The translations under genes and the position numbers were made by a program. Shown here piece by piece: positions 38,260-59,963 of a stretch of 64,000 nt of DNA. Positions within the stretch are counted from its first letter, which is position 1. Every line of letters starts with the position of its first letter. Source of the DNA: Chloroflexota bacterium (GTDB taxonomy: Bacteria > Chloroflexota > Anaerolineae > Promineifilales > Promineifilaceae); contig JAJRYT010000114.1 in NCBI GenBank assembly GCA_024275635.1, forward strand, positions 28,292 through 92,291, written 5' to 3'. The notes under the pieces were generated by a model, which had not been told where the DNA came from, made no database searches, and was given only the letters and a program-made list of their open reading frames with translations.

Positions 38260-40386
<2,127 letters not shown>

Positions 40387-40571
40387 AATTCGTTCGGTGC
40401 CATCTATAAATCGTTTCAACCGCCTTCGCTTCGATACCTTCCGGCGAGATATTGTAAGCTGTTTGAGAATTACCCTCAAACATTTGCCTCAACCGCGCAA
40501 ATAATGATGAGTGGCGATTAGTACTCTAGCCACTTCCCATTTTAGTCACTTCCCACTTGCGGTTTACCGCG

Positions 40572-41657
40572 TTATGATTTTGCGCTGTTTTGTTGCACTG
40601 TTTCCACCACCATATCCCCTACCTGCGTTGTACTCAGCCCGCTGCGGGCATTGACTGATGGAATCTTGCCGCTGGAGAGGAGTTGGGCGACGGCCGTTTC
40701 AATCCGCTGCGCCCCCTGTTTCTCCCCCACATAATCCAGCATCATACTCACCGCCATAATCGCCCCCAATGGGCAGGCCACATTCTTGCCGCCGTACTTG
40801 GGCGCGGAACCGTGAATCGGCTCAAACATCGAAGTCTTGCCCGGATGCAAATTGCCGGAAGCGGCGATGCCCACCCCCCCTTGCAGCATCGAACCCAGGT
40901 CGGTGATGATATCGCCAAACAGATTCGTCGTCACAATCACCTCAAACCATTCCGGGTTCTTCACCATCCACATGGTGCAGGCATCCACGTAAGCGTGATC
41001 CTGCTGCACGTCCGGGTACTCCTCGCCTACTTCGGCAAAAGCGCGCGTCCAGATGTCGTGCGGCCGTACCGCGTTCGCCTTATCCACCAGCGTCAGCCGG
41101 GCTGGTTTGCCCAATTCGGCCGCCCGCGTCTGCGCCAGCTCATAGCCGTAGCGGATCGCCCGTTCCACCCCCTTGCGCGTGTACACCCCGGTGACGGTCG
41201 CCACCTCATCCGGCGTCCCTTTCTTCAGGATGCCGCCGATTTGGGCGTACAGCCCCTCGGTGTTCTCGCGGACGACGACCATGTCAATGTCCTCCGGCCC
41301 CTTATCCTTCAGCGGGCACAAATGGGCGGCGTACAGCTTGATAGGGCGCAGATTGATATACAAATCCAGGCCAAAGCGCAGCCCCAGGATGACTGACCGT
41401 TCCACCAGCCCCGGCTCCACGTCCGGGTGGCCGATGGCTCCCAGGTAAACGGCGTCCAGCCCGCGCCACTCCTCAATCACCCGTTCCGGCACCAGCTCCT
41501 TCGTCTTCAAATAATATTCGCCGGAATAGGGGTACTCGACCAGGTTGCAGTCGAACCCTTCATCCTTCATCACTGTGCGCAGCACCTTCAGCCCTTCATT
41601 CGCTACCTCCGGGCCAATGCCGTCGCCGCCGAGTACACCGATATTGTAAGTTGTCAT
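40572..41657 (-). CDS. isopropylmalate/tartrate/isocitrate dehydrogenase family enzyme (LeuB-like)
   Basis: [13 protein letters not shown]...LGAIG...NLRP...[10 protein letters not shown]...[10 protein letters not shown]...GSAPK. The ATG at 41657 has AAGGAG 6 nt upstream. Confidence 0.85.
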
Positions 41658-41693
41658 GGTTGCTCCTTTTTCCACTTTGTGTTTGATGTGACA

Positions 41694-41801
41694 GGAGATT
41701 GGAGACTGGAGACTGGAGACTGTAAATCTTCGCCGCTAGTCTCTAGTCTCCTAGTCTCTAGTCTCTAATCTCTAATCTCTAATCTCTAATCTCTAATCTC
41801 T
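41694..41801. repeat. long heptamer hairpin (GGAGACT x3 / TAGTCTC x4) followed by (TAATCTC)x6
   Basis: ggagattggagactggagactggagactg...ctagtctctagtctcctagtctctagtctc taatctc taatctc taatctc... Confidence 0.9.
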
Positions 41802-41803
41802 TA

Positions 41804-42958
41804 TCATCTACTTCCCGCCAACTTCCGCGCAATTATCAATCTTTGAATCTGCGCTGTTCCCTCATAAATCTGCAAAATCTTGGCGTCCCGCATCCACTTT
41901 TCCACCGGATAGTCGCGGATAAAGCCGTAGCCGCCCAGTACCTGCACCGCGTCCGTCGTCACCTTCATCGCCACGTCGGCCGCGAACAATTTAGCCATAC
42001 TCGCCTCTTTCGTACACGGCTTCCCCCGGTCGGCCAGGCGGGCGGCGCGCCAGGTGAGCAGGCGAGCAGCATCAATCTGCGTCGCCATCTCTGCCAGCAT
42101 GAAGGCGATGGCCTGGCGCTGGATGATCGGCTTGCCGAACTGCACCCGCTCCTGGGCGTATTGCAGGGCATATTCGTAGGCGGCGCGGGCCAGCCCAACG
42201 GCCGCAGCCGCGATGTGTGTCCGCGTGATCTCGAAGGTCTTCATGGCGAGCTTGAACCCTTCCCCTTCTTCGCCCAACCGGTTCTCGACAGGGACGCGCA
42301 TATCTTCAAATGCCAGCGTCGCTGTGGGCGAGGCGCGAATGCCCATCTTCTTCTCCTTCTTACCGATGACCAGGCCGGGCGTGTCCTTCTCCACGATGAA
42401 GGCGGTGATCCCCCGGTGTCCCCGGCTGACGTCCACGGTGGCGAAGACGACGAAGATGTCAGCGATGGGGGCGTTGCTGATGAAATGTTTGTAGCCGTTG
42501 AGGATGTAATGACGGCCGTCCCGCCACGCTTCCGTCGCCAAACTGGCCGCATCCGACCCGGCCGAAGGTTCTGTCAGGGCAAAGGCGCCGATGGCCGGTT
42601 TACGGCCGTAGCTAAACTCGGACAGGAACTTGAATTTCTGGTCGTCGCTGCCGGCCAGGATGATGGGAGTAGCGGCCAGAGCGGTAGCGCCGATGATGGA
42701 GCGCACGGCCGTACACCCCCAGGCCAGCTCCTCATTCACCAGCGCCTGGGTCACCTTATCGGTCACGTCCCCGCCGCCGTACCGTTTGGGAATGTAATAG
42801 GAAAAGAACCCGGCTTCGGCCGCTTTTTCGATGACCTTCCAGGGCACTTCTTCCCGCTCGTCGTATTCAGCGGCGACGGGCCGGATATCTTTCTCGGCAA
42901 AGCGGCGGGCCATCTCCCGCATTTCGCGCTGTTCGTCACTCAGTTCAAAATCAATCAT
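41804..42958 (-). CDS. acyl-CoA dehydrogenase
   Basis: MIDFELSDEQREMREMARRFAEKDIRP...ALTEPSAGSD...YEGTAQIQRLIIAR is the classic ACAD pattern. Confidence 0.9.
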   Translation of the reverse strand: MIDFELSDEQREMREMARRFAEKDIRPVAAEYDEREEVPWKVIEKAAEAGFFSYYIPKRYGGGDVTDKVTQALVNEELAWGCTAVRSIIGATALAATPIILAGSDDQKFKFLSEFSYGRKPAIGAFALTEPSAGSDAASLATEAWRDGRHYILNGYKHFISNAPIADIFVVFATVDVSRGHRGITAFIVEKDTPGLVIGKKEKKMGIRASPTATLAFEDMRVPVENRLGEEGEGFKLAMKTFEITRTHIAAAAVGLARAAYEYALQYAQERVQFGKPIIQRQAIAFMLAEMATQIDAARLLTWRAARLADRGKPCTKEASMAKLFAADVAMKVTTDAVQVLGGYGFIRDYPVEKWMRDAKILQIYEGTAQIQRLIIARKLAGSR

Positions 42959-42977
42959 ATGCCCTCACTCTCTCGCT

Positions 42978-43535
42978 TTACTTGTTCCTACGCTCAGCAT
43001 GAAAAGAGGCAGAATTATTCAAGACAATAGGCAGGAATATTTTTGTAGACCCTAACTGTGAAATCACTATCCAAGTGCCAGACGCTCTACACAGACTTTG
43101 TAAAGTCTCATCATAATAATAGACATAATAATCGCCCGTTCCGGTAATTGCTGATGTGAAGGTTCCTGTAAAGACTTTTCCAAAGCCATCGATTATGAAA
43201 GTATCGTCAACAATTGGAGTTCCGGGAGCATTGCCCAGGGTAATGGAGCTAAAGATTGCAGGTCTGATCAACGTGCCACATCGTTCATCATAACTAATTT
43301 CGAAAGGAGTCACATGGGTGCGGGTTTCATTAACTGTGAAACTAATCGAATATCCCTCGCTTGTATTACCTTGCCAGTTACCCTTAGATGGTGCAAATGA
43401 AAATGCGAGAATCGGTTTGGTCGACTGATTACCAAGCGAAACAAACCTTATTGTGAGCAATAGAAGAATAAGTGAGTATGTAAATGTAAAGCAAAGTCTT
43501 ACAAAAAGATGTTTCCTCATTTTTCTCATTCTCAC
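42978..43535 (-). CDS. hypothetical secreted protein (AT-rich insertion)
   Basis: 185-aa ORF with a signal-like N-terminus. Markedly AT-richer than both flanks. No domain recognised. Confidence 0.5.
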   Translation of the reverse strand: MRMRKMRKHLFVRLCFTFTYSLILLLLTIRFVSLGNQSTKPILAFSFAPSKGNWQGNTSEGYSISFTVNETRTHVTPFEISYDERCGTLIRPAIFSSITLGNAPGTPIVDDTFIIDGFGKVFTGTFTSAITGTGDYYVYYYDETLQSLCRASGTWIVISQLGSTKIFLPIVLNNSASFHAERRNK

Positions 43536-43628
43536 ACTCTGTGTAGAGATGCTTGCCGGAACGCTCCGTATTTTACTTGACGCGGAGCGTCTGCCCGTTC
43601 AGTCTACGCTCCGCGTGGAATGAGGCAA

Positions 43629-45665
43629 TTATGCTTCCTGCGCCAGCCGATCCTCGACGTAGGCCAACAGGCCGCCCCGGTCAATGATGCGCTGGAGGAA
43701 GTCGGGGAAGGGTTGGGCGCGGTAGGTTTCGTCTCGCGTCAAGTTGCGAATGACGCCGGCGGCCGGTTCCACTTCCACCCGGTCGCCCTCCTGGATGCGG
43801 TCTACCGCTTCCGGGCATTCCAGGATGGGCAGGCCGATGTTGATGGCGTTGCGGAAGAAGATGCGGGCGAAGGATTTGGCGATGACGGCCGATACCCCCG
43901 CCGCTTTAATCGTCAACGGGGCCACTTCCCGCGAGGAGCCGCAGCCGAAATTGGCGTCGGCCACGATCAGGTCGCCGCGGCTCATGTTATTGACGAACTC
44001 CGCGTCGGCGTCTTCCATGCAGTAGAGGGCCAGTTCGCGCGGGTCGGCCGTGTTACAGCGGCGGGCGGGGATGATGGCGTCGGTGTCTATGTTTTGGCCG
44101 AATTTCCAGGCCGTGCCGTGGATGCGCACCCGTTCCCGCAGATATTCCTTCCACACCGGGCCGCCGCCGCGCCGGGGCAGGGCGTCGAAGAAGAGGACGC
44201 GGTCGGGCCGGGCGTAATCGGCTAAATGTTCGGCGGCGAAGTTGAGTAAATCTCCCTCGCTGAAATCGGCCGACGGCCGTTTCACCACACAGGCGCACGA
44301 TATTTCCCCGTAAATCAGGTCGGGGATGCTGACGACGGCCGCTTCCTTCACCCCCGGATGGGAGCGCAAAACCATTTCCACCGGGCCGGGGTACACTTTG
44401 AAGCCGCCGCGGTTGATCACCTCATCCTTGCGGCCGACGATACGCGCCGGGCCGTCGGGGTCAATCACCGCCAGGTCGCCGGTGCGCAGCCAACCGTCGC
44501 TGTCAATCGCCTCCGCCGTTGCCTCCGGGTCGTCCCAGTACCCCTTCATCACGTTGTAGCCGCGCACGCATAATTCGCCCTCCGCCCCTGGGGGCAAATC
44601 GCGTCCCTGCTCGTCCACCACTTTTAGCTCAATGCCCTCGTGGGGACGGCCGACGGTTTCCACGGCCGTCACTGGGCCATCGTCAAAGCGCGTAATCGTC
44701 ACGCCGGGGGAGGCTTCCGTCAGCCCGTAAGCCAACAGCAACTGGCAGCCCATCTCCTCGCGGACGCGGCGCACCAGTTCCGGCGGGCAGGGCGCGCCGG
44801 ACATGATGCCGGTGCGCATCCGGCAGGCGGCGGGGTCAAAATCGGGGTGGTTCAATTCCAGGCTGAACATGGTGGGGACGCCGTGATGGATGGTGACGCT
44901 CGCTTCCCGGATGAGGCGCAGGGCGTCGCCGGGGCGGTAGCGGGGCAGGCAGACGAGTTCGGCCCCGGCGATGGCGCCGGCCAGGATGGTGGGCGTAATG
45001 CCGAAGGCGTTGGAGAAGGGGACGGCTCCCAGGAAGACGTCGTCGGGTGTGGCGGCCAGTATCTGGGCGACGGCGGCGGCGTTGCGCGCCAGGCCGCCGT
45101 GCGTCAACATCGCCCCGCGCGGCTGGCCCGAGCTGCCCAGCGTATGGGCGATGACGGCCGTGTCCTCCAGTCTGGTTGTAGGTGCGGGGGGAACGGCCGC
45201 GCTTCCCAACAAATCCGCCCATTCCGCGCTGCCAACGGCAATCACGCGCTCCAAGTCGGGCAAATCGGCCTGCAAACGGCGGGCCAGAGCCAGGTGATCC
45301 ACGCCGTGAAAATTATCCGGGTCGGAGAAGGTAAGCAGTGCGCGGGGGCGGGTCTTTTCCAGCCGGGCGGCCACCTCTGTCTCGTGGCGGCGGACGTTGA
45401 TGGGGACTAAAATCAGCCCCACTTTGGCGGCGGCGAACAGCGCCAGCACATATTCCGGCAGGTTGGGCAGGAGGACGGCCAGCCGGTCGCCCGCTTCCAG
45501 CCCCAGCCGGCGCAGCCCGGCGGTCAGAGCGTTGGCCTGTCGCTCCGCTTCGGCGTAGGTGATGCGGTCATTTCCCAGGCGCAAGAACGGCCGTTGGCCA
45601 TATTTCGCCGCCTGGGTAGCTAGTAGTTCGCCAATGGTCATTTGGTGGGTAGGTTCGTAGGTCAT
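43629..45665 (-). CDS. fusion protein: AMP-dependent acyl-CoA synthetase/ligase + LeuD-like (aconitase-family small subunit) domain
   Basis: N-terminal ~500 aa AMP-binding (TLGSSGQPRGAMLTH...YGLTE...GWLRTGD). C-terminal ~165 aa GQNIDTDAIIPAR...ANFGCGSSRE...FFRNAIN, as in LeuD/HacB. Confidence 0.8.
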   Translation of the reverse strand: MTYEPTHQMTIGELLATQAAKYGQRPFLRLGNDRITYAEAERQANALTAGLRRLGLEAGDRLAVLLPNLPEYVLALFAAAKVGLILVPINVRRHETEVAARLEKTRPRALLTFSDPDNFHGVDHLALARRLQADLPDLERVIAVGSAEWADLLGSAAVPPAPTTRLEDTAVIAHTLGSSGQPRGAMLTHGGLARNAAAVAQILAATPDDVFLGAVPFSNAFGITPTILAGAIAGAELVCLPRYRPGDALRLIREASVTIHHGVPTMFSLELNHPDFDPAACRMRTGIMSGAPCPPELVRRVREEMGCQLLLAYGLTEASPGVTITRFDDGPVTAVETVGRPHEGIELKVVDEQGRDLPPGAEGELCVRGYNVMKGYWDDPEATAEAIDSDGWLRTGDLAVIDPDGPARIVGRKDEVINRGGFKVYPGPVEMVLRSHPGVKEAAVVSIPDLIYGEISCACVVKRPSADFSEGDLLNFAAEHLADYARPDRVLFFDALPRRGGGPVWKEYLRERVRIHGTAWKFGQNIDTDAIIPARRCNTADPRELALYCMEDADAEFVNNMSRGDLIVADANFGCGSSREVAPLTIKAAGVSAVIAKSFARIFFRNAINIGLPILECPEAVDRIQEGDRVEVEPAAGVIRNLTRDETYRAQPFPDFLQRIIDRGGLLAYVEDRLAQEA

Positions 45666-45683
45666 AATATTTCCTGTGTATTT

Positions 45684-45787
45684 GGTAATCGGTAATTAGT
45701 AATTGGTAATCGGTAATTAGTAATTGGTAATCGGTAATTAGTAATTGGTAATTGGTTAATTACTCAATTACCAATTACCCAATTACC
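45684..45787. repeat. heptamer array: 3 x 21-bp (ggtaatc ggtaatt agtaatt) then an inverted AATTACC arm
   Basis: Three exact 21-mers at 45684-45746, then ggtaattggttaattactcaattaccaattacccaattacc. The 3' part encodes the last residues of the PaaI-like ORF. Confidence 0.9.
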
Positions 45788-46213
45788 ATCTTCCAAAAAC
45801 TGCTCCTTCTTCCGGTAAGCCATGCCGTGCAGCTCGGCAATCAAGTTCTCCTCGTCATCCGTCACCGTCATCCGGCAGAGGGCGGTGCGGCCGCCGCGAC
45901 GGATTTCAACGGCAACGGCCGTCAGCACGGCCCCCGGTTTCGGCGTGGTCACAAAATGGATGTCCATGCTCAAGGCCAGCGCCGTCTGCCCCGACGAGTT
46001 ACAGGCAGCGGCAAAAGCGACGTCGGCCAGAGCAAAAACGGCCGCGCCGTGCAGCAGGCCGTGCCCGTTGGTCAGGTGCGGAGCCATCCGCATCTCCGTC
46101 CGGGCGTACCCCGGCCGCACCGCTACCAGTTCAACCCCCAAGCGCCGGGCCAACTGGTCTCGTTCTGCCATAAAGCGGTGGACGGCCGCGGCCGTTTCGT
46201 TTTCGTTCATCAA
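45764..46213 (-). CDS. PaaI-family hotdog thioesterase
   Basis: HLTNGHGLLHGAAVFALADVAFAAACN... is the PaaI/YdiI signature, ~140 aa. The C-terminal NWVIGN tail is encoded by a heptamer repeat. Confidence 0.8.
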   Translation of the reverse strand: MMNENETAAAVHRFMAERDQLARRLGVELVAVRPGYARTEMRMAPHLTNGHGLLHGAAVFALADVAFAAACNSSGQTALALSMDIHFVTTPKPGAVLTAVAVEIRRGGRTALCRMTVTDDEENLIAELHGMAYRKKEQFLEDGNWVIGN

Positions 46214-46219
46214 TGACTA

Positions 46220-46328
46220 CACAGAGAGCACAGAGGAGACGCGGAGATCACAGAGAGAATACAAAGATTTGTTCCTTTTTTCTCTTCTTTCTCCGTGTTC
46301 TCTGTGTCATCTCCGTGCCCTCTGCGTC
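46220..46328. repeat. CACAGAG/CTCTGTG hairpin element, left copy flanking the GxxExxY gene
   Basis: cacagagagcacagaggagacgcggagatcacagagag...ctccgtgttctctgtgtcatctccgtgccctctgcgtcc. Confidence 0.85.
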
Positions 46329-46724
46329 CTATCCCATTACAAAACGTCGAATCCCGTTTTTGAGCAGTTTGACCTGGAAGTTGAGCAGCAGGCCAACTTT
46401 GCAGCCAGACAATTTCAAGTAGGACAAAACTTGGGCTTCGTGAACGGGTAAAATGTGTTCAACAACTTTAAGTTCGACAACAATCTTGTCTTCAACCAGT
46501 AAATCAATCCGGTAGCCCTGCTCCAAACGAATTTCTTTGTAAACCAGCGGCAGCGCCTTTTGTCGCTCAACCTTCAATCCTAACTTTTCTAACTCATAAA
46601 CCAGACAGGTCTCGTAAGCAGATTCCAGCAACCCCGGCCCCAAATGCCGATGCACCTCAATCGCCGCGCCGATAATCTGCTCTGTCAACTTGTTCATCTT
46701 AGCCCGGATTCCATTCATAACCAT
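46329..46724 (-). CDS. GxxExxY family protein
   Basis: LTEQIIGAAIEVHRHLGPGLLESAYETCLVYEL...YRIDLLVEDKIVVELK...SYLKLSG..VGLLLNF matches the GxxExxY family pattern (GLLESAY). Possible start at 46697. Confidence 0.8.
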   Translation of the reverse strand: MVMNGIRAKMNKLTEQIIGAAIEVHRHLGPGLLESAYETCLVYELEKLGLKVERQKALPLVYKEIRLEQGYRIDLLVEDKIVVELKVVEHILPVHEAQVLSYLKLSGCKVGLLLNFQVKLLKNGIRRFVMG

Positions 46725-46743
46725 TATTTCTTTCTAAGAATTA

Positions 46744-46859
46744 CACAGAGCGCACAGAGAGGGGATACAAAGATTCATAGAGAGGACACAAAGTTGTTGT
46801 TTTTCTTTTCTCTCCTTTCTTTCTGTTCTCTGTGTCTTCCCTCCGTGCTCTCTGTGTCC
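46744..46859. repeat. CACAGAG/CTCTGTG hairpin element, right copy flanking the GxxExxY gene
   Basis: cacagagcgcacagagagg...ctgttctctgtgtcttccctccgtgctctctgtgtcc. Same orientation as 46220-46328. Confidence 0.85.
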
Positions 46860-48121
46860 TAATTCATCACCTCGTCCGGCGACGTAATCACGCCGGTGAT
46901 GGCCGAGGCCGCCGCCACGTAAGGATTCGCCAGGTAGACCTCGCTCTCAATATGTCCCATCCGGCCGTGGAAATTACGGTTGCTGGTGGAGACGCAGCGT
47001 TCCCCTTCGGCCAGGACGCCCATGTGCCCGCCCAGACAGGGGCCGCAGGTCGGCGTCGTCACCGAGCAGTTGGCGTCCACGAAAATCTCGATCAGCCCTT
47101 CGCGCAGGGCGTCCAGGTACACTTTTTGGGTGCCAGGAACGATGACAGCGCGCACGTGTGGGTGAATTTTGCGCCCTTTCAGCACCTCGGCCGCCGCCCG
47201 CAAATCGGCCAGGTTGCCGTTGGTACACATGCCGATGACCACCTGGTCAATTTCCAGCCCGGCCAGTTCCGATACCGGCTTGACGTTGGAGGGGAGAAAG
47301 GGGGCGGCGATGAACGGTTCCATCTGTGTCACGTCGTATTCGTACACGGCCGCATATTCCGCATCCGGGTCGCTCTCAAAATATAATCCTTCCCGGTCGC
47401 CCCGCTGGCGCACAAATGCCCGCGTCACCTCGTCGGCGGCAAACAGCCCGGCCATCGCCCCCGCCTCAATCGCCATGTTGGCCATCGAGAAACGGGAGGC
47501 CATGCTCAAATGGGGCACGGCCTCGCCAGTGAACTCCATCGCCTGGTAGCGCGCCCCGGCCACGCCGATGTCGCCAATCGTGTGCAAAATTAAATCCTTG
47601 CCGCCGACCCATTTGGGGGGACGGCCGTGATAGACGAATTTGATGCTCTCCGGCACTTTCAGCCATACTTCCCCCAGCGCCATCGCCGCCGCCGCGTCCG
47701 TCGAGCCGATGCCGGTTCCGAACGCGCCCAGGAAACCATAGGTGCAGGTGTGCGAATCGGCTCCGGCCACCAGGTCGCCGGGGACGACGATCCCCTGTTC
47801 CGGCAGGAGGACGTGCTGAATCCCGGCCCGGCCCACGTCGTAAAAGCGGATGCCGTGCTTGCGGGCGAAGTCGCGGCAGCGTTTGACGATTTGGGCGCTT
47901 TTGATGTCTTTGGCCGGGGTGAAATGATCCATGACGAAGACCACCTTCTCCGGCTCGCGCACCCGCGCCCCTTTGATTTTCTCGAATTCCTCAATTGCCA
48001 GGACGCCGGACAGTTCCGAAGCCAGCGCCACGTCTACGCGGGCATTGATGAATTCCCCCGGATACACTTCATCCTGGTCGCATTTAGCAGCCAATATTTT
48101 TTCGGCAAGGGTGTGTCCCAT
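46859..48121 (-). CDS. LeuC/HacA-like aconitase-family dehydratase large subunit
   Basis: MGHTLAEKIL...DHF.P...GADSHTCT...CTNG...CGPCLG...SNRNFHGRMG, with the three Fe-S Cys ligands. ~420 aa archaeal-type LeuC. Confidence 0.85.
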   Translation of the reverse strand: MGHTLAEKILAAKCDQDEVYPGEFINARVDVALASELSGVLAIEEFEKIKGARVREPEKVVFVMDHFTPAKDIKSAQIVKRCRDFARKHGIRFYDVGRAGIQHVLLPEQGIVVPGDLVAGADSHTCTYGFLGAFGTGIGSTDAAAAMALGEVWLKVPESIKFVYHGRPPKWVGGKDLILHTIGDIGVAGARYQAMEFTGEAVPHLSMASRFSMANMAIEAGAMAGLFAADEVTRAFVRQRGDREGLYFESDPDAEYAAVYEYDVTQMEPFIAAPFLPSNVKPVSELAGLEIDQVVIGMCTNGNLADLRAAAEVLKGRKIHPHVRAVIVPGTQKVYLDALREGLIEIFVDANCSVTTPTCGPCLGGHMGVLAEGERCVSTSNRNFHGRMGHIESEVYLANPYVAAASAITGVITSPDEVMN

Positions 48122-48156
48122 ACTGTCTCCTTAATTAACGAGTTGGTTATTGGAAA

Positions 48157-48213
48157 TTAGAGACTGGAGACTAGAGATTAGAACAGTCTCCGATCTCTAG
48201 TCCCTAGTCTCTC
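48157..48213. repeat. heptamer hairpin, GGAGACT/TAGAGAC family
   Basis: ttagagactggagactagagatta...cagtctccgatctctagtccctagtctctc. Confidence 0.8.
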
Positions 48214-49200
48214 TCAAGTCACAAACTCCGGCCGATCCCTTAACGGCGGCGGGGAAGTCGGCAGTAATTTGCCCGTTTCGATAGATTCCACCAGCGCGGC
48301 CTCGTCGAACCAGCTTGAGGGCGGCTTGTGGCCCCAGAAGGTGGCCCGGCGCGGGTCGTTGATGCGCCAGCGAATCGGTTCCCAATCGGGATCGGGGATG
48401 ATGTAATCGTTGGTGTACAGCTCGATGCGGTTGCCGTCGGGGTCGCGCAGGTAGACGAAGAGGGCGTTGCTGATGCCGTGCCGGCCGGGGCCGCGTTCGA
48501 TGCTGTCGGCGTAGCCGCTGGCGGCCAGCACGTCGCAGGCGCGCAGGACGCTCTCCTGGTTGGCCAGCCAGAAGCCGGCGTGGTGCAGCCGCGGGCCGAC
48601 GCCGTTCATGAGGGCGATGTCGTGGACGTTTTGCTTGCGGTGCAGCCAGGCGGCCCACAGGCTGGGCGGCTCCTCCTCGGTGACGGTCAGTTCGGAGCAG
48701 TAGAAGCCGAGGGTCTGGGTGAACCAGTCGTAGGCGGCCTGCACCTGGGGAACCTGGACGTTGAAATGATCCAGGCGCATGACGTTGGCCCCGCGATATT
48801 GATCAAAACGCTGCAGCCGCCAGTCGCGCCGCTCCATCTCGTGGTAAAACTCCAGGGGCAGGCCGGTGGCGTCTTGCACGCGCAGGGCGCGCCCCTGGCC
48901 CGCTTCTTCGCCGGGAGCCAGCCAGCGGGTGGGACGGCCGTTTTCCGCATACAGCCGCGCCAGCCGTTCCAAATCGCCGGGGTCGGCCACGCGGAAGGCG
49001 AGGTGAGAGACGCCGGGGCTGTCGGCCAGCCGCAGCGTCAGGCCGTGATGTTCCCGCTCTTCCAGGCCGCCCAGGTAGAGGTGTTGGTCGTCACGGCCGT
49101 TTTCCAGGAACCCCAATACTTCCACATAAAAATGGCGCGCCCGCTCCAGGTCTGTCACCCGGAACTCGATGTGTCCGGCGCGGGTGATGGAGAATGTCAT
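48214..49200 (-). CDS. two-domain VOC-family extradiol ring-cleavage dioxygenase (catechol/homoprotocatechuate 2,3-dioxygenase-like)
   Basis: ITRAGHIEFRVTDLERARHFYVEVLGF...HLAF... with a repeated second VOC module (MRLDHFNVQVP...HDIAL...HHAGFW...YLRDPDGNRIELY). Confidence 0.8.
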   Translation of the reverse strand: MTFSITRAGHIEFRVTDLERARHFYVEVLGFLENGRDDQHLYLGGLEEREHHGLTLRLADSPGVSHLAFRVADPGDLERLARLYAENGRPTRWLAPGEEAGQGRALRVQDATGLPLEFYHEMERRDWRLQRFDQYRGANVMRLDHFNVQVPQVQAAYDWFTQTLGFYCSELTVTEEEPPSLWAAWLHRKQNVHDIALMNGVGPRLHHAGFWLANQESVLRACDVLAASGYADSIERGPGRHGISNALFVYLRDPDGNRIELYTNDYIIPDPDWEPIRWRINDPRRATFWGHKPPSSWFDEAALVESIETGKLLPTSPPPLRDRPEFVT

Positions 49201-49216
49201 GGTTTACCTCCAAAGA

Positions 49217-49256
49217 GAATTGCCAATTGTGAATTATGAATTGTCAATTGTTAATT
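49217..49256. repeat. heptamer tract, GAATTGT/CAATTGT family
   Basis: gaattgccaattgtgaattatgaattgtcaattgttaatt. Inverted partner at 49454-49492, 200 bp away. Confidence 0.75.
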
Positions 49257-49453
49257 TCCTCGCTGCCATGGATCGTAGAAAACCTGCACCGGCTCCGCTT
49301 CCCAGCCCAGGTCAGGGGCGGGGGGAGACTCGGTGGTGTGAAGACGGCCGTACCTGCCGCCGTAAAAGAGGAGCTGCCGTCGTGGTTCAATCCTCTCTAT
49401 CCTCAATATCGTCCCCTTTCGCCATTACATTTGTCTCCCCAGAAACCATCCTC

Positions 49454-49492
49454 ATTCACAATTTACAATTCACCATTCACCATTCACAATTT
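49454..49492. repeat. heptamer tract, ATTCACA/ATTCACC family
   Basis: attcacaatttacaattcaccattcaccattcacaattt. Confidence 0.75.
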
Positions 49493-50935
49493 CTCATCAT
49501 TTCGCCGCAAAAACTCCCTCACCATCTCCATATACGGTGTCATATCATGACTCCGCACCAGGACGCCGGCCATGCGCACCGGGTCGCCGAAGAAGTAGCG
49601 TTCGTACAGGGCCTGCCGCGCAGCAAAGGCGGACAGCGCCGTATCCCAGGCCAGGCGGAAGATGGGGATGCGCTCCAGGGCGTCGGCGCGGGCGGCCTGG
49701 TAAAAGCGCTGAATTTCCTCACGCAGCGGCCCGTTGACGTCCGCTTCGGTGGGCGCGGCGACCAGCCCGCTGGCTCCCAACTGCTGGATGATCTCCACCA
49801 TGCGCGGGTAGAGGTGGGGGTAGAGGTTGCGGGCAGCGTCCAGCGGATCCCAGGCGGGGCGCATGACGCCGTAGTCGTCCAGGGCGGCGTCGGCTTCGGC
49901 CGCTTTCAGGAACGCTTTCATCGTCTCCAGGTTGACCCAAATCGTGGACAGCTTCTCCTGCACGTGCTGGAAGACCTCGATGCCGATGGTGTGTACCAGC
50001 AGGGATGCCACCCCCAGCAGGAATTCCGTCTTGGCGATGTTTTTGACGAGCACCTGGTGGGCCATGTTAACGATGGCCCCGGTGGCTGAGTACGCTTTGT
50101 TGCAGGTTTCCACGTCGCGGTACAAAAAGACGCGCTCCCAGGGGACGAAAACGTCGTCGAAGATGACGACGGCGTCCATTTCTTCGTAGCGGGAGCCGAG
50201 GGGGTGGTCGTAGTGGGAACGGCCGTAATCCAGGCTCTCCCGGCAAATAAACTTCAGCCCCGGCGTGTTGCAGGGAATAGAAAGGCCAAAAGCGTAGGGC
50301 GCGTCCTCCGGCCGGTTCTTGAGCAGCGTGGAGGGAAAGACCATGATCTCGTCGGCCATGGGCAGCGTGGCCAGCATCCGCGCGCCGCGAATGACGATGC
50401 CGGCGTCTGTTTCCTCTTTGACGCGGGCGGCGAGGAAGGGGTCCGCTTGATCGGCCGTGCCTTTGGCCCGGTTGGCCTGGGGCGTGATCAGCGTATGCGT
50501 CAGGCAAAGGTCGTTTTCGCGGATGTGTTCGTGGTAATCGGTGACATTTTGCCCGAAGCGGGGGTCGTGGGCGGCGATGAACGCCGCGCCGCCGGCATAG
50601 CCGGTCATGGCCCGGTTCAGGTAATCGGGCGCGCGCCCCATCATGCCGTGATGATGGTCGGCCCACACCTTCATCATCCGGCTGACGCTGAGCAGTTCCT
50701 CTTGGGTGCGCGGGATCAGGAAAGAACGGCCGACTTTCTCCCCCGTCGTCGGCGAATCAAACAACATCACGTCCGGCTGCTGCCACTGCACGTCGTACAG
50801 CTCCGCCAGACTGCGCGCGCCGTTCTTAAAGGCCGGATGCGTTGTCACATCCGCCACCCGCTCCCCCCGGTACCAGATTGCCGGCCCTTCCTCGCGCAAT
50901 TTTTGAATGACCTGTTCGCCTCGTCTCGCTGGCAT
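49484..50935 (-). CDS. hpaB: 4-hydroxyphenylacetate 3-monooxygenase, oxygenase component
   Basis: ~483 aa with an HpaB-family N-terminus (EGPAIWYRGERVADVTTHPAF.N.ARSLAELYD) and C-terminal domain. The ATG at 50935 is preceded by GGAGG. Confidence 0.85.
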   Translation of the reverse strand: MPARRGEQVIQKLREEGPAIWYRGERVADVTTHPAFKNGARSLAELYDVQWQQPDVMLFDSPTTGEKVGRSFLIPRTQEELLSVSRMMKVWADHHHGMMGRAPDYLNRAMTGYAGGAAFIAAHDPRFGQNVTDYHEHIRENDLCLTHTLITPQANRAKGTADQADPFLAARVKEETDAGIVIRGARMLATLPMADEIMVFPSTLLKNRPEDAPYAFGLSIPCNTPGLKFICRESLDYGRSHYDHPLGSRYEEMDAVVIFDDVFVPWERVFLYRDVETCNKAYSATGAIVNMAHQVLVKNIAKTEFLLGVASLLVHTIGIEVFQHVQEKLSTIWVNLETMKAFLKAAEADAALDDYGVMRPAWDPLDAARNLYPHLYPRMVEIIQQLGASGLVAAPTEADVNGPLREEIQRFYQAARADALERIPIFRLAWDTALSAFAARQALYERYFFGDPVRMAGVLVRSHDMTPYMEMVREFLRRNDEKL

Positions 50936-50950
50936 TCTAACCTCCAAAAA

Positions 50951-51030
50951 TTATGAATTGTGAATTGTCAATTGTGAATTATGAACGGGATCATTCACCA
51001 TTCACAATTCATCATTCGCAATTCACAATT
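50951..51030. repeat. heptamer hairpin, GAATTGT/ATTCACA family
   Basis: ttatgaattgtgaattgtcaattgtgaattatgaa-cggga-tcattcaccattcacaattcatcattcgcaattcacaatt. Confidence 0.85.
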
Positions 51031-52495
51031 ATTCTGCTCCTAATTTTGGTATCTTGTGTTCGCCCAAGGCCACGTGAATGGTGGTCACTTCGGTGTAAAA
51101 ATCAAAGCTGTAACGGCCGCCTTCCCGACCGATGCCGCTGTGCTTGCTGCCGCCGAACGGGGTGCGTAAATCGCGCACGTTTTGGGAATTGATCCAGACC
51201 ATGCCTGACTCAATCGCTTCGGCGACGCGATGCCCCCGCGTCAGGTCGCCCGTCCAGACGTAGGCGGCCAGGCCATACTTGATGTCGTTGGCGATGCGCA
51301 GCGCCTCAGCTTCGTCCTGGAACCGGATGACCACCAGCGCCGGCCCGAAAATCTCTTCCTGGGCGATGCGCATCCGGTTGTCCACGTTGGTGATGAGGGT
51401 GGGCTGGAAGTAGTTGCCGTGGGGGAGGTGCGACGGCCGTTCCCCGCCCACCGCAATCACCGCCCCCTCATCACGGGCCACATTCATGTACGCCCGCACC
51501 CGCCCCCAATGCTCCGGGTGAATCAGCGGGCCGACTTCCGTGTTCATGTCCATCGGGTCGCCCACCCGGATTTTGGCCACGCGGGCCGCCAATTTGTTTA
51601 CAAAATCGTCGTAAATGGAGGCCTGAACCAGCAGCCGCGATCCGGCCGTGCAGCGCTCGCCATTGAGCGAATACACCTGCCAGATGGCCCCATCCAGCGC
51701 CCGATCCAAGTCGGCGTCCTCAAACACCATCGTCGGCGACTTGCCGCCCAGTTCCATGGAGAACCGCTTCAATGTGGCCGCGCCGTTGCGCATGATCTCC
51801 TGCCCCGTCGTCGTCTCGCCGGTGAAAGAGATCAACTGCACGCCGGGATGAGCCACCAGGGCGGCCCCGGCCGTTTCGCCGATGCCCTGCACCACGTTGA
51901 AGACGCCCGGCGGCAGGTCGGCTTCCTGGATGATTTCGGCCAGCTTATTGGCGGAGAGGGGCGCCCATTCGGCCGGTTTGAGGATGCAGGTGTTGCCCGC
52001 CGCCAGGCAGGGGGCCACCTTCCACGTTTCCAGCATGAAGGGGACGTTCCAGGGGGTGATCAGCCCGGCCACGCCCACCGGCCGGCGGACGGTGTAATTC
52101 ATGAACTGGCCGTCTTTGGGGAAAGATTCGCCGCTGATTTGCGTCACCATTTCGGCGAAGAAATAAAAGTTTTGGGCGGCGCGGGCGATAACCCCTTTCC
52201 TGAGCTGGCTGGCGGGGACGCCGGTGTCCGTGATTTCCACATCGGTGATTTCTTCGGCGCGCTTTTCGATGAGGTTGCCGATTTTGCGTAACGCTTTGGC
52301 CCGGTCGGCGGCCGTCATGCGCGGCCAGGGGCCTTCGTCAAACGCTTGGCGCGCCGCCTGGACGGCCCGGTCAATATCGGCCGCGCTGCCGGAGGCGACG
52401 GCCGTGATGGGCTGGTTGGTGGCCGGGTTTAAGGTCTCAAATGTCTCCCCCTCAACGGGGGGGACAAATTCGTTCTCAATAAAATGATGAATCAT
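51029..52495 (-). CDS. NAD(P)-dependent aldehyde dehydrogenase (ring-fission semialdehyde dehydrogenase-like, HpaE/XylG type)
   Basis: ALDH motifs: FTGETTTG, ELGGKSP, ...ERCTAGSR (catalytic Cys), EEIFGP. The track allows a GTG start at 52516. Confidence 0.9.
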   Translation of the reverse strand: MIHHFIENEFVPPVEGETFETLNPATNQPITAVASGSAADIDRAVQAARQAFDEGPWPRMTAADRAKALRKIGNLIEKRAEEITDVEITDTGVPASQLRKGVIARAAQNFYFFAEMVTQISGESFPKDGQFMNYTVRRPVGVAGLITPWNVPFMLETWKVAPCLAAGNTCILKPAEWAPLSANKLAEIIQEADLPPGVFNVVQGIGETAGAALVAHPGVQLISFTGETTTGQEIMRNGAATLKRFSMELGGKSPTMVFEDADLDRALDGAIWQVYSLNGERCTAGSRLLVQASIYDDFVNKLAARVAKIRVGDPMDMNTEVGPLIHPEHWGRVRAYMNVARDEGAVIAVGGERPSHLPHGNYFQPTLITNVDNRMRIAQEEIFGPALVVIRFQDEAEALRIANDIKYGLAAYVWTGDLTRGHRVAEAIESGMVWINSQNVRDLRTPFGGSKHSGIGREGGRYSFDFYTEVTTIHVALGEHKIPKLGAE

Positions 52496-52588
52496 TTTTG
52501 CGTTTCCTTTTTCCACAATCCGCAGATGGCGCCGATTATGCAGATGAATTGGTCTTAAATCGGCGCAATCCGCGTAATCAGCGGATTT

Positions 52589-53332
52589 TTATTCCGCCAC
52601 CACCCGATTCTCCAACGCGCCCAGCCCATCTATTTCCAACCGCATCTCGTCGCCGGGATAGACGTGGGAGATGCCTTTGGGCGTGCCCGTCCAGATCATG
52701 TCGCCCGGTTCCAGGGTCATGATCATGGAGATGAAGGCGATCAGGTCGGGCACGGGGCGAATCAGTTGGCCGGTGTTGCCCTGCTGCCGCAGTTCGCCGT
52801 TGACGAATGCCCGCAGGTTCAGGTCGGCCGGGTCGGGGATTTCATCGGCCGTCACCAGATACGGGCCGACGGGGCCGAAGGTGTCGTACCCTTTGGCGCG
52901 CACCGGCGGCCGGTAAAAATCCATCACAAAGTCGCGCACGGTAACGTCGTTGCCGATGGTGTAGCCGGCGATGACTTCGTGCGCCCGTTCCGGCTTCACG
53001 CGGCGGCAGCGACGGCCGATCACTACCACTAGTTCAACTTCATAGTGCATGTACGCGATCCCTGCCGGAGCCGTCACCTCCCCTTTGTGCCCGATGAGCG
53101 AGCTGGTCGGCTTGAAGAACAGGGCCGGTTCCGGCGGCGACTCCATCTTCAACTCGGCGGCGTGGTCGGCGTAGTTGAGGGCCAGGCCTATGGCTTTGGT
53201 AGGCGTAACCGGCGGCAGCCAGACCACATCGTCGGGGGCGTAAATGGCGCCGTCGGCGGCAGCCAGTTGGCCGTCGTTGTTGACTGCGCCCTCGTGGATA
53301 CGGCCGTTTACGGCAAAGCGAGCCAGTTTCAT
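52589..53332 (-). CDS. fumarylacetoacetate hydrolase (FAH) family enzyme (HpaG/2-oxohepta-3-ene-dioate hydratase-decarboxylase-like)
   Basis: IGLALNYADH...FFKP.SSLIGH...YEVELVVVIG...AGYTIGNDVT.RD...KG.DTF.P.GP...GD.I.TGTP.G. Confidence 0.85.
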   Translation of the reverse strand: MKLARFAVNGRIHEGAVNNDGQLAAADGAIYAPDDVVWLPPVTPTKAIGLALNYADHAAELKMESPPEPALFFKPTSSLIGHKGEVTAPAGIAYMHYEVELVVVIGRRCRRVKPERAHEVIAGYTIGNDVTVRDFVMDFYRPPVRAKGYDTFGPVGPYLVTADEIPDPADLNLRAFVNGELRQQGNTGQLIRPVPDLIAFISMIMTLEPGDMIWTGTPKGISHVYPGDEMRLEIDGLGALENRVVAE

Positions 53333-53347
53333 CGTCTAGACCTTTTT

Positions 53348-53451
53348 GGGACACAGAGGGCGCGGAGAAGACACAGAGATTCACAGAGATAAGGAGAAAA
53401 ATCTCTCCAATCTCCGTGTTCTCCGTGTATCCTCAGTGTCCTCTGTGTCCC
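53348..53451. repeat. CACAGAG/CTCTGTG hairpin element, third copy without cargo gene
   Basis: gggacacagagg...cacagagattcacagag...ctccgtgttctccgtgtatcctcagtgtcctctgtgtccc. 12-bp perfect terminal stem. Confidence 0.85.
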
Positions 53452-53453
53452 AC

Positions 53454-54317
53454 TCATCCTTCCTCCTCGAACACCATACCCAAAAACGCCCGGATCGGCG
53501 GCACAACGCGCGGGTTATCGTGCAGGATCATCGTGAAATGGTTGACGCCGGGGATGTCCACCCGCCAGCAGTTGGGAATCCAGGCCACGAAAGCGGCCGC
53601 TTCCCGTTCGTCCAGCACATGCGCCTTGTCGCCCAGCAGCCCGTTTTGCGGCCGGATAAACAGTGTGGGGCATTGCAAGGTAGGAAAGTGAACGCACATG
53701 CTGTAGTAAAAATGAACGTCTAAATCCTTTTTGATGGCGGCGGCGGAAGATTTGGGTTGGACACGGCCGTTCCCCGCCTCCGCCAAATGATCCAACAAAA
53801 ACCGCTCCAATCCCGGATTCCAGGGCGCGTAAAAAGGGAGTTCCCGCATCGCTGCCAGGTACGCCTCCGCCGATTCATAAGCGTGCCCCAGCCGCTCAAT
53901 CGCCGGATACATCGCCTTCATCACTTCCTCTTTCGGGTCCGCGCCGCCGTCAATCAGCGTCAGCGAACGCACCTGCATCGGCCGGATAGAAGCCAGATAC
54001 ACACCCACCGTGGCCCCAAACGAATGGCCGATGATGTGAAACCGCTCAAATCCCATCGCCTCCACAAAAGCCATGACGTCCCGCGCGTGGTAAGAAAAGC
54101 CGTACCCTTCCGCCGGTTTGTCGCTGTCCCCCCGGCCGCGCAAATCCAGGGCGAACAGGTGATATTCCGGGGCCAACCGGCCGGCGACCTGGTCAAACGT
54201 CCCCTTATGGCCGATGAGGCTGTGCAGGCAGATCACCGGCCCCTTTTCCCCCGGCCATTCTTTGTAGGCCAGGGTGATGTCGTTGACCTGGATGGTTTGG
54301 GTATCTGAATTCATCAT
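53454..54317 (-). CDS. alpha/beta-fold hydrolase (possible meta-cleavage product hydrolase)
   Basis: HG..G....F, nucleophile elbow IIGHSFGATV and a C-terminal ...PGVNHF. ~285 aa. Confidence 0.8.
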   Translation of the reverse strand: MMNSDTQTIQVNDITLAYKEWPGEKGPVICLHSLIGHKGTFDQVAGRLAPEYHLFALDLRGRGDSDKPAEGYGFSYHARDVMAFVEAMGFERFHIIGHSFGATVGVYLASIRPMQVRSLTLIDGGADPKEEVMKAMYPAIERLGHAYESAEAYLAAMRELPFYAPWNPGLERFLLDHLAEAGNGRVQPKSSAAAIKKDLDVHFYYSMCVHFPTLQCPTLFIRPQNGLLGDKAHVLDEREAAAFVAWIPNCWRVDIPGVNHFTMILHDNPRVVPPIRAFLGMVFEEEG

Positions 54318-54321
54318 GATT

Positions 54322-54387
54322 GGGGGATTGGAGACTAGAGACTAGAAATTGAGTCGCCCGGTCTCCAGTCTCTAGCCCCTAGTCTCC
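54322..54387. repeat. heptamer hairpin, GGAGACT/TAGAGAC family
   Basis: gggggattggagactagagactagaaattgagtcgcccggtctccagtctctagcccctagtctcc. Confidence 0.8.
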
Positions 54388-55274
54388 ACTATTCCATACT
54401 CCGCCAACACCTGCCGCAGTTTCGCTTCATTTTCCGGCCGTAACGGGGCCAGCGGCGGCCGTACCTCCGGGCTGATTTTGCCCATCATGCCCAGCGCCGT
54501 TTTGGCCGGGACGGGGTTGATTTCGATAAAAATGGCGTCATTGAGCGGCATCAAGCGGTAGTGCAAATTTTGGGCTTCTTGCCATCTACCCGCCGCCGTC
54601 AGGTCGTACAGCCGGGCTACTTTGGCGGGCAGGATGTTGCCCGTTGCGCTGACGTATCCGGCCCCGCCGATGGCCAGCACTGGGAAGCAGAGCAGTTCGA
54701 TGCCGGAGTAAACCAGGAAATCGCGGCCCAGCTTTCCCAGCAGGCGGGTGATGTGGGAGAAATCTTTGTTGGCTTCCTTGACGCCGATGATATTGGCGCA
54801 ATCATCGCGCAGGCGGGCGACGGTATCAATTCCCAGGTTGACGGCCGTCCGTCCGGGAATATTGTAGAGGATAATCGGCAGCGACACCGCGTCTGCCACT
54901 GCCTTAAAGAACCGGTACAGCCCTTCCTGGCTGGGACGAATGTAGTAGGGAACGATGAGCAGCAAGGCGTCAGCCCCGGTCTTTTGGGCGAAGCGGGAGT
55001 AATGCAGGGTTTCCTCCAGATTGTTGCTGCCCGTTCCGGCGACGAAGGGGACACGGCCGTTCACCGTTTCCGCTCCGATTTGAATCACCCGCTCCCGTTC
55101 GGCCCGGCTGAGCGCGCTCGGCTCGCCCGTCGTCCCCGTCACCGAGACGCCGTGACTGCCGCTGGCGATCTGCCATTCAATCAGATCGGCCAGCCCCGTT
55201 TTGTCCAGCTTTCCATCCCGGAAGGGCGTCACCACTGGCACAATCGAGCCGCGCATCTGTTCTGGCTTAAACAT
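54372..55274 (-). CDS. DapA/NAL-family class I aldolase (dihydrodipicolinate synthase family)
   Basis: GSIVPVVTPF...G.HGV.V.GTTGE...LS..ER...GTGSN...YY..P....L..HF..., and the lysine region IIGVKEA. Start set at MFKPEQMRG. Confidence 0.8.
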   Translation of the reverse strand: MFKPEQMRGSIVPVVTPFRDGKLDKTGLADLIEWQIASGSHGVSVTGTTGEPSALSRAERERVIQIGAETVNGRVPFVAGTGSNNLEETLHYSRFAQKTGADALLLIVPYYIRPSQEGLYRFFKAVADAVSLPIILYNIPGRTAVNLGIDTVARLRDDCANIIGVKEANKDFSHITRLLGKLGRDFLVYSGIELLCFPVLAIGGAGYVSATGNILPAKVARLYDLTAAGRWQEAQNLHYRLMPLNDAIFIEINPVPAKTALGMMGKISPEVRPPLAPLRPENEAKLRQVLAEYGIVETRG

Positions 55275-56427: not shown

Positions 56428-56428
56428 A

Positions 56429-57682: not shown

Positions 57683-57688
57683 GATTTT

Positions 57689-57755
57689 GGGGATTAGAGA
57701 CTGGAGATTAGAGATTTGAGACTGGTAATCTCTAATCTTCAGTCTCTAGTCTCTC
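57689..57755. repeat. heptamer hairpin, TAGAGAC/GGAGATT family
   Basis: gggattagagactggagattagagatttgagactggtaatctctaatcttcagtctctagtctctc. Confidence 0.8.
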
Positions 57756-59597: not shown

Positions 59598-59660
59598 TAC
59601 TCATTACTCATTACTCATTACTCATTACTCATTACTCATTACTCATTACTCATTGCTCAT
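59591..59660. repeat. pure tandem heptamer array (TTACTCA)x~10, no inverted partner
   Basis: cactcat tactcat x8 tgctcat. The first unit overlaps the aor start codon (59595-59597) and the array extends upstream of it. Confidence 0.9.
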
Positions 59661-59663
59661 TTA

Positions 59664-59915
59664 TTACCCGCCGGCAATGGGCCAGACGAGGTGGACGTGA
59701 CGGCCGTCCCCCAACACCGTCGCCTCATCCGCCTCATCCTCGCCCACAAACAACAGCGGCGGCGCATCGGCAAACTCCTGCGCCAGCGCCGGGTACTGCG
59801 CCAGCAGCGCCGCCAGCAAATCCGCCATCCGCGATCCGGCCGCTAGTTCCACGTCCAGATTACGCTGACCCACGACCCGCCAAAACGGTTCCGCCAGCCG
59901 CACGTGTACGTTCAT
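59664..59915 (-). CDS. MoaD/ThiS-family ubiquitin-like beta-grasp protein (C-terminal GG)
   Basis: 83 aa ending ...VHLVWPIAGG. Size and Gly-Gly terminus are typical of MoaD/ThiS sulfur carriers. Adjacent to aor. Confidence 0.6.
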   Translation of the reverse strand: MNVHVRLAEPFWRVVGQRNLDVELAAGSRMADLLAALLAQYPALAQEFADAPPLLFVGEDEADEATVLGDGRHVHLVWPIAGG

Positions 59916-59924
59916 CGGTGAAAA

Positions 59925-59957
59925 AACCTCCGGGAGGTTCCGAACCTCCCGGAGGTT
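59925..59957. repeat. 15-bp perfect hairpin, CCTCCCGGAGG family
   Basis: aacctccgggaggtt-ccg-aacctcccggaggtt, between the paaK stop and the moaD-like start. Confidence 0.85.
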
Positions 59958-59963
59958 GAAATC

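Follow-up and report, generated by a model that had tools for sequence, protein, structure and literature searches.

The 64,000-nucleotide stretch of Chloroflexota DNA analysed here (the window; positions 28,292–92,291 of contig JAJRYT010000114.1, assembly GCA_024275635.1) encodes on its minus strand a 678-residue protein (43629–45665) in which a ligase-like ANL domain is joined to a LeuD-type subunit. We found that this fusion is genuine and anciently fixed, and that its C-terminal part provides the small subunit of an iron–sulfur isomerase of the LeuC/LeuD type, paralogous to the leucine enzyme. Together with a LeuB-like dehydrogenase and a short LeuA-like synthase, this isomerase makes up a 2-oxoacid one-carbon chain-elongation module, part of a supercluster for anaerobic aromatic-acid catabolism that is conserved in Anaerolineae. 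Because they lie inside that cluster, the Leu-like genes probably lengthen phenylpyruvate-type acids rather than make leucine. The best explanation, in which we place middling confidence, is that arylpyruvates would be elongated by one carbon, converted to arylpropionyl-CoA, and shortened by β-oxidation to (hydroxy)benzoyl-CoA. The ANL domain is conserved but is probably not working as a standard ligase, judging from its motifs.

Both halves of the fusion were recognized with Pfam and NCBIfam models. Residues 1–515 (44121–45665) form the ANL domain, defined by its A-motifs and by two Pfam domains: AMP-binding (PF00501, residues 16–377, 287 bits) and AMP-binding_C (PF13193, residues 429–499). 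Residues 516–678 (43629–44120) form the LeuD-type domain, with an intact GCGSSRE motif and the loop IIPAR-RCNT; positions 1–155/156 of TIGR02084 match residues 517–671 at 235–239 bits, under the cut-off of 245.85. A homologue search covering 5.8 billion proteins, clustered at 90% identity, returned more than 120 clusters with the same three Pfam domains, 670–713 residues long and 63–87% identical to the 678-residue protein. Their source assemblies (NCBI, JGI, ENA, and Logan) are labelled Anaerolineae, Anaerolineales, or Chloroflexota, and one carrier is a closed contig of 3.97 Mb (CP129482.1). In an alignment of 120 fusion homologues the linker-less junction, YLRERVRI(R/H)G.AWKFG.N(I/V)DTD, shows conservation above 90%. 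The fusion is thus no assembly artefact, because more than 120 independent clusters share the same in-frame junction. Comparison of the source genome (G000) with its relative G761 gives a dN/dS of 0.20 in the ANL part and 0.165 in the LeuD part, and other genome pairs range over 0.16–0.35 and 0.12–0.24, respectively; both halves are therefore under purifying selection. In the AlphaFold2 model (mean pLDDT 80, pTM 0.64), the helix formed by residues 506–513 runs straight into the first LeuD strand (516–522), and the GTG codon of V513 (44127–44129) may be the former leuD start. At a pTM of 0.64 the orientation of the two domains is not confident, so that the model is silent on channelling between them.

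Fused LeuDs were found in G000, G761, G691, and G449 within our sample of the class, and in G378 within the phylum sample. In the LeuD tree, 23 of the 24 fused sequences fall into one clade (98/94), and the fused sequence of G449 is sister to the unfused one of G411 (100/96). The G449 protein shares its junction and altered motifs with the other fused forms, and the simplest history is therefore that the fusion arose once and G411 later lost the ligase part. One genus (G432, locus L094 7160–9730, and G540) has a second, independent fusion, the protein synthase::LeuC; it is 857 residues long and has the linker TSAPAILTPSGQDTG.

The ANL domain has the motifs A3 TLGSSGQPRG, A4 FSNAFG, A5 YGLTE, A7 TGD, and A8 GRKDE. 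At the A10 position stands Pro503 (codon CCG, 44157–44159), placed opposite the SGK lysine by HMMER alignments to 8WEU/8WEV and 5WM2. The A10 lysine is needed for the adenylation half-reaction in ANL enzymes such as PrpE, Acs, and 4-chlorobenzoate ligase. None of the 120 aligned homologues has lysine at this position (P83/A9/L9/V7/T4/G3), and the surrounding region reads LPRRGSG-P-VQK in the fused family. The best solved relatives act on aromatic acids, namely salicylate, ferulate, dihydroxybenzoate, and coumarate. With such aryl/acyl-CoA ligases (5WM2 salicylate-AMP ligase, 8WEV feruloyl-CoA synthetase, DhbE, and 3A9U 4-coumarate:CoA ligase) the fused family shares both sub-domains at full length (230–253 bits) and motifs A5, A7, and A8, which are invariant or nearly so across the family. 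It differs from them in A10 (Lys to Pro), in A4 (FSN(A/T)FG, Asn for His), in A3 (TLGSSGxPRG, Arg for Lys in 117/120), and in a C-terminal helix that passes directly into LeuD. A search of representative sequences with the ligase part returned mostly multi-module non-ribosomal peptide synthetases; the informative matches were P0129 (a truncated fused form), P0131 (fused), and P0274 (unfused). The last of these is the closest unfused relative found (46% identity) and carries canonical A3 (YTSGTTGTPKG), A4 (FHVFG), and A10 (SGK) motifs. The loci around the closest unfused ligases belong mostly to relatives of 43% identity or less from many phyla.

An earlier note on this DNA had described the domain as a complete ligase. 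This holds for its full-length extent but not for its catalytic motifs: the domain is under purifying selection without the canonical A10 lysine and A4 histidine. One possible role is that of a non-canonical arylpropionate/cinnamate-CoA ligase supplying the same β-oxidation; slightly favoured over this is a non-adenylating binding or regulatory module.

The partner of the fused LeuD is a type-2 LeuC (46859–48121, minus strand) that retains the three cluster cysteines and scores 615.6 bits against TIGR02083 (cut-off 610.65). No other type-2 LeuC is encoded in the genome, and in all relatives this one adjoins the fusion, in agreement with the pairing proposed in the earlier note. That note had also asked whether these genes might be the organism's only leuBCD. 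They are not: the source metagenome-assembled genome (MAG; 5.7 Mb, 253 contigs, 93.65% complete) has a bacterial-type leuC (TIGR00170, 725 bits) and leuD (TIGR00171, 222 bits) adjoining a 545-residue leuA on contig C102, and a leuB (TIGR00169, 494 bits) on contig C65, all of which exceed curated cut-offs; an aconitase is encoded on contig C251. The Leu-like genes of the window are thus a second, non-biosynthetic set. With type-2 (TIGR02083/TIGR02084) 3-isopropylmalate isomerase the window enzyme shares fold, the GCGSSRE motif, the cluster cysteines, and the two-subunit architecture. The cluster-type LeuDs differ from it in forming a clade of their own (98/89), apart from canonical type-2 LeuDs, in a score just under the cut-off, in genomic context, and in the loop R[H/R/Y]CNT instead of RYLN(V/T)(S/T): all fused forms have R(R/H)CNT, unfused cluster forms have RYC or RHC, and canonical Anaerolineae LeuDs, to which identity is 56–64%, have RYLN. 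The LeuD tree places a second family of short synthase–LeuC–LeuD–LeuB clusters, from other Chloroflexota classes (G100, G145, G052, G136, G003, and others; loci L025–L042), as sister to the Anaerolineae cluster type; its LeuD loop is RYCHIT, and a distant thiolase-like gene comes next in order.

The LeuB-like gene (40572–41675, minus strand) starts with GTG, the ATG at 41657 being the start given in the earlier note. Its product scores 425 bits against NF002898 (above the cut-off of 393) and 254 bits against TIGR00169 (below 353). The best match in the PDB is Mycobacterium tuberculosis LeuB (1W0D), which has ERGLLL where the window protein has the hydrophobic segment ERSVIL; from structures of 3-isopropylmalate dehydrogenase (IPMDH), we take this segment to be the substrate side-chain pocket. 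Between LeuD and LeuB lies an acyl-CoA dehydrogenase (ACAD) gene of the Bcd/AcrC-like type (41804–42958, minus strand), and this position recurs in G761, G691, G378, G697, and G290.

The remaining genes of the module lie past the window. On CP129482.1 (locus L020) and a JGI contig (L022), the order is SDR, thiolase, YbgC-type thioesterase, Zn-ADH, Amidohydro_2, IorA, IorB, synthase, LeuC, fusion, and LeuB-like dehydrogenase. The synthase of these loci is LeuA-like, 437 residues long, and without the LeuA_dimer regulatory domain. IorA passes the equivalog cut-off of IOR_alpha (indolepyruvate:ferredoxin oxidoreductase alpha; 671 versus 650.9 bits), and the Zn-ADH best matches 6-hydroxycyclohex-1-ene-1-carbonyl-CoA dehydrogenase (Had). 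In G000 the synthase-to-thioesterase genes are on the same contig as the window (C53:99902–105466), about 23.5 kb of aromatic genes separating them from LeuC. The part of this insert that falls within the window (48214–63899, minus strand) is an aromatic amino-acid/4-hydroxyphenylacetate block identified with NCBIfam, which encodes, in coordinate order, HpaD, HpaB, HpaE, HpaG, a hydrolase, HpaI, an aminotransferase, an MFS transporter for aromatic acids, AOR, PaaK, IorB2, and IorA2; past the window it goes on with Liv-type ABC transporter genes and a second PaaK-like gene. Contig C108 of the same genome ends with MaoC, SDR, and thiolase and must, from the gene order of relatives, abut the end of C53. 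Upstream on C108 are crotonases resembling Dch and Oah, a PaaX-like regulator, and two ATPases of the activase type; BcrB-like and BcrC-like proteins, a LarA-like racemase, and a CoA-transferase pair are encoded there as well.

The whole set is found on one contig and one strand in G378 and G761: LeuB, ACAD, fusion, PaaI, LeuC, aminotransferase, AOR, PaaK, IorAB2, synthase, IorAB, Amidohydro_2, ZnADH, thioesterase, thiolase, SDR, MaoC, Dch, Oah, PaaX, and a Bcr-like set described as BcrCBAD-like. In G290, which belongs to another family, the LeuD is unfused and the gene set is the same, with the addition of a 4-hydroxybenzoyl-CoA-reductase-alpha-like gene (823 bits, cut-off 994). Genes for PaaX, PaaK, AOR, the HcrA-like protein, and Bcr/Dch/Had/Oah-like proteins recur in at least three families. 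The gene content and coordinates reported earlier for the window were borne out, with all named genes on the minus strand, and the earlier guess at an aryl-malate-type acid fits a set embedded in the CoA-ester catabolism of aromatic acids. The cluster as then drawn was real but partial, as the synthase, IorAB, β-oxidation, and ring-reduction genes lie past the window. Of its members, the ACAD is a recurrent one; the PaaI-type (hydroxy)phenylacetyl-CoA thioesterase (45764–46213, minus strand; TIGR02286, 103 bits, under the cut-off of 118.9) occurs in G000, G761, and G378 only and belongs functionally with the Hpa/PaaK/IorAB2 block inserted in this lineage.

Cluster-type synthases were found in 18 of the 401 sampled genomes of the class (17 of 216 genera). 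A BcrC-like gene is present in 11 of these 18 genomes and in 11 of the 383 without the synthase, a descriptive count among related genomes rather than a test. At the synthase of G686, a frame suggesting a 1166-residue fusion was rejected as a GC-rich read-through frame that encodes no protein.

For the synthase, the five side-chain-contacting positions listed for related enzymes (PMC12961565, Table 1) were mapped through PDB alignments; the numbering was checked against the PDB sequence of 2ZTJ, which has R, H, and R at Arg12, His72, and Arg133. Published residues at these positions are Ala/Asp/Ala/Met/Ser in the benzylmalate synthase HphA, His/Arg/Thr/Ser/His in homocitrate synthase (HCS), and Leu/Glu/Ser/Asn/Glu in isopropylmalate synthase (IPMS), and mutation of Ala73 changes the substrate specificity of HphA (PMC12961565). 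In a MAFFT alignment, 19 of 21 cluster-type synthases (48–100% identity) have A/M/V/C/H (Ala/Met/Val/Cys/His), and canonical LeuAs in the same alignment have L/E/S/N/E, in agreement with the published pattern. The gatekeeper at the HphA A73 position is Ala in 21/21 cluster-type synthases (Leu in IPMS, His in HCS). From this pattern the predicted pocket is neither IPMS-like nor HCS-like; it is hydrophobic and has its small gatekeeper in common with benzylmalate synthase.

Taken together as a pathway, the encoded enzymes would work as follows. An arylpyruvate, derived from Phe or Tyr via the neighbouring aminotransferase or from arylacetate via PaaK and reverse IOR, would condense with acetyl-CoA to a 2-benzylmalate-type acid, which LeuC and the fused LeuD would isomerize. 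Oxidative decarboxylation by the LeuB-like enzyme would give 2-oxo-4-arylbutyrate, and IorAB would convert this to 3-arylpropionyl-CoA. ACAD, MaoC hydratase, SDR, and thiolase would then yield (4-hydroxy)benzoyl-CoA and acetyl-CoA, the former passing to the Bcr-, Dch-, Had-, and Oah-like enzymes or being released by a thioesterase. Such a route would sidestep the α-oxidation of phenylacetyl-CoA.

Within this scheme the two fused domains would catalyse steps that are not neighbours, and the fusion is therefore no evidence of channelling, which the earlier note had taken it to imply; orthologous clusters in G697, G290, and G411, with an unfused LeuD and no such ligase, also speak against it. We raise more tentatively the possibility that Anaerolineae have an undescribed oxygen-independent route from Phe/Tyr to (hydroxy)benzoyl-CoA (homologation, IOR, and β-oxidation) and that, in one lineage, the isomerase small subunit has in addition captured a non-adenylating ANL domain as an acyl-CoA/adenylate-binding control or docking module. 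The searchable literature held no description of the fusion, of an Anaerolineae benzoyl-CoA reductase together with phenylalanine, or of isopropylmalate together with indolepyruvate.

Several points weigh against the arylpyruvate route. The ANL domain, lacking the A10 lysine, fits poorly with a ligase step, and apart from the gatekeeper Ala the synthase pocket is unlike that of HphA (M/V/C/H versus D/A/M/S). Most neighbours (the Bcr-, Dch-, Had-, Oah-, and PaaX-like proteins) score under equivalog cut-offs, among them those for ring reduction: BcrC 268 bits (cut-off 421), BcrB 200 (486), Dch 176 (292), Oah 216 (464), and Had 276 (339); the Bcr-, Dch-, Oah-, and Had-like assignments are nonetheless the top matches of these proteins. 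The Bcr-like set could be an aryllactyl-CoA dehydratase, since the LarA-like racemase and the CoA-transferase adjoin it, and the β-oxidation genes could serve the lower benzoyl-CoA pathway instead of acting on arylpropionyl-CoA. Furthermore, 7 of the 18 synthase genomes showed no BcrC-like gene, and more distant synthase homologues (G508, G470, and G433) stand without LeuCD neighbours.

The alternative that survives best, though we consider it unlikely, is that the module elongates aliphatic or branched 2-oxoacids (2-oxoisovalerate, 2-oxoisocaproate, or 2-oxobutyrate). IorAB would then deliver branched or odd-chain acyl-CoA for β-oxidation or as lipid primers, and the aromatic genes would be fellow travellers in a catabolic island. 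The hydrophobic pockets of the synthase and the LeuB-like enzyme would suit any large non-polar side chain, the ACAD best matches short-chain types (AcrC/Bcd-like), and Liv-type ABC transporter genes lie between IorA2 and the synthase. However, IorA exceeds a cut-off for an aryl substrate, indolepyruvate; the aromatic genes recur in three or more families; and the gatekeeper is Ala as in HphA, not Leu as in IPMS.

Considerably less probable is a dicarboxylate module like that of homocitrate synthase, homoaconitase, and homoisocitrate dehydrogenase, taking 2-oxoglutarate to 2-oxoadipate, with IorAB forming glutaryl-CoA and the ACAD acting as glutaryl-CoA dehydrogenase; such a module would tie in with the lower benzoyl-CoA pathway or with lysine metabolism. 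Homocitrate synthases (6KTQ and 2ZTJ) are indeed the synthase's best solved relatives, and the ACAD matches a model of the Desulfococcus glutaryl-CoA dehydrogenase at 302 bits. An assignment of the synthase as homocitrate synthase was nevertheless rejected: Ala and Met replace His72 and Arg133, which bind 2-oxoglutarate in the Thermus thermophilus enzyme. Likewise, the LeuD loop is without the Arg position of the YLRT type, and the ERSVIL pocket of the LeuB-like protein resembles IPMDH.

We also see very little likelihood in a reversed, "dehomologation" direction, in which the LeuB-like enzyme carboxylates an aryl 2-oxoacid, LeuCD isomerizes the product, the fused ligase makes a 2-arylmalate CoA ester, and the synthase homologue cleaves it as a lyase. 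This is the sole model that places both fused domains on consecutive intermediates, so that the fusion would join successive steps, and the supercluster does contain a CoA-transferase pair. Against it, the lysine required for adenylation is missing from the ANL domain, the synthase resembles Claisen condensing enzymes and not HMG-CoA lyase, and unfused clusters have no ligase; we know of no precedent for such a route. Just as hard to sustain is a plain second biosynthetic leuBCD/cimA set, making leucine or, via citramalate, isoleucine, with read-through into leuD from an incidental ligase gene next to it. One curated cut-off of the isopropylmalate type is passed by LeuC (TIGR02083) and another by the LeuB-like protein (NF002898), but the genome has its canonical set elsewhere, the synthase lacks the LeuA regulatory domain and has a different pocket, the LeuD clade and loop are distinct, the gene context is catabolic, and the module is confined to the 18 synthase genomes of the class sample. 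That an assembly error or frameshift falsely joined two genes in a 253-contig MAG can be dismissed, as the identical in-frame junction recurs throughout the fusion clusters and on a closed contig.

Other features of the window bear less directly on the pathway. Between the fusion and the ACAD gene lies an AT-rich open reading frame encoding 185 residues (42978–43535, minus strand) with a hydrophobic N-terminal segment and no Pfam or NCBIfam match. It is probably an insertion; in relatives its place is empty or holds different small open reading frames. A GxxExxY gene of the PD-(D/E)XK type (46329–46724, minus strand) is flanked by direct copies of a CT-rich element (TCTCTGTG / TCTCCGTG) at 46269–46331 and 46797–46861. 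In the gene maps of relatives it stands at this place in G000 and G761 only, and it looks like an inserted cassette outside the pathway. The spacer just upstream of the fusion start (45678–45756) holds four tandem copies of a 21-nt unit, GTAATTGGTAATCGGTAATTA, made of GGTAAT(C/T)-like heptamers, with a weaker copy at 49216–49252; these copies may form an operator array or belong to the window's repeat elements. A scan of 40300–48400 for promoters and terminators gave no more sites than shuffled sequence.

Within the aromatic block of G000, genes for an oxygen-dependent homoprotocatechuate pathway (HpaB, HpaD, HpaE, HpaG, and HpaI; 48214–55340) are wedged between oxygen-sensitive ferredoxin/tungsten enzymes and the Leu-like module; G761 has just an HpaD fragment at this position. 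The AOR of the block was considered as a class II benzoyl-CoA reductase (BamB) and rejected, with 386 bits to 1AOR and 180 bits to 4Z3W. On C108 (270–4425), a LarA-like nickel-pincer 2-hydroxyacid racemase (385 bits to LarAH10), a luciferase-like open reading frame, and a two-subunit CoA-transferase stand beside the Bcr-like genes, which hints at aryllactate chemistry next to ring reduction.

If correct, the bypass by homologation and β-oxidation would answer how strict anaerobes without Pad enzymes reach benzoyl-CoA: in sulfate reducers that lack these enzymes, the step from phenylacetyl-CoA or phenylpyruvate to benzoyl-CoA is unclear (PMC5109826). Enzymes of the bypass would pass electrons to NAD, ferredoxin, and ETF only. 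Given the abundance of Anaerolineae in digesters and sediments, the route could be important in the turnover of protein- and lignin-derived aromatics. The fusion itself is a natural case of an ANL domain under selection after loss of the catalytic lysine, and the cluster cautions against annotating such genes as leuC, leuD, leuB, or "fatty-acyl-CoA synthase," their current database labels.

The proposed first half mirrors the homologation of homophenylalanine biosynthesis by HphA, HphCD, and HphB in Nostoc punctiforme (PMC12961565). In each, a short synthase that has no regulatory domain is combined with an isomerase of the LeuC/LeuD type and a dehydrogenase of the IPMDH type; the Hph enzymes act on arylpyruvates, and the cluster synthase has Ala at the HphA A73 position. 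This likeness is one of enzyme set and published pocket residues. The two differ in the other four pocket positions, in the joining of LeuD to an ANL domain, and in setting, which is catabolic here (IorAB, β-oxidation, and ring reduction) and the biosynthesis of a non-proteinogenic amino acid in Nostoc. The last part of the proposed route mirrors the anaerobic β-oxidation of 3-phenylpropanoate and cinnamate in Desulfococcus multivorans, Aromatoleum aromaticum, and Rhodopseudomonas palustris, in which 3-phenylpropanoate is converted to benzoyl-CoA by a ligase, an ACAD, a hydratase/dehydrogenase, and a thiolase (PMC5109826). The same complement of CoA ligase, ACAD, hydratase, dehydrogenase, and thiolase lies beside benzoyl-CoA ring-reduction genes in both cases. 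In the Anaerolineae cluster, however, the ligase is fused and atypical, and arylpropionyl-CoA would arise internally, from arylpyruvate by homologation and IOR.

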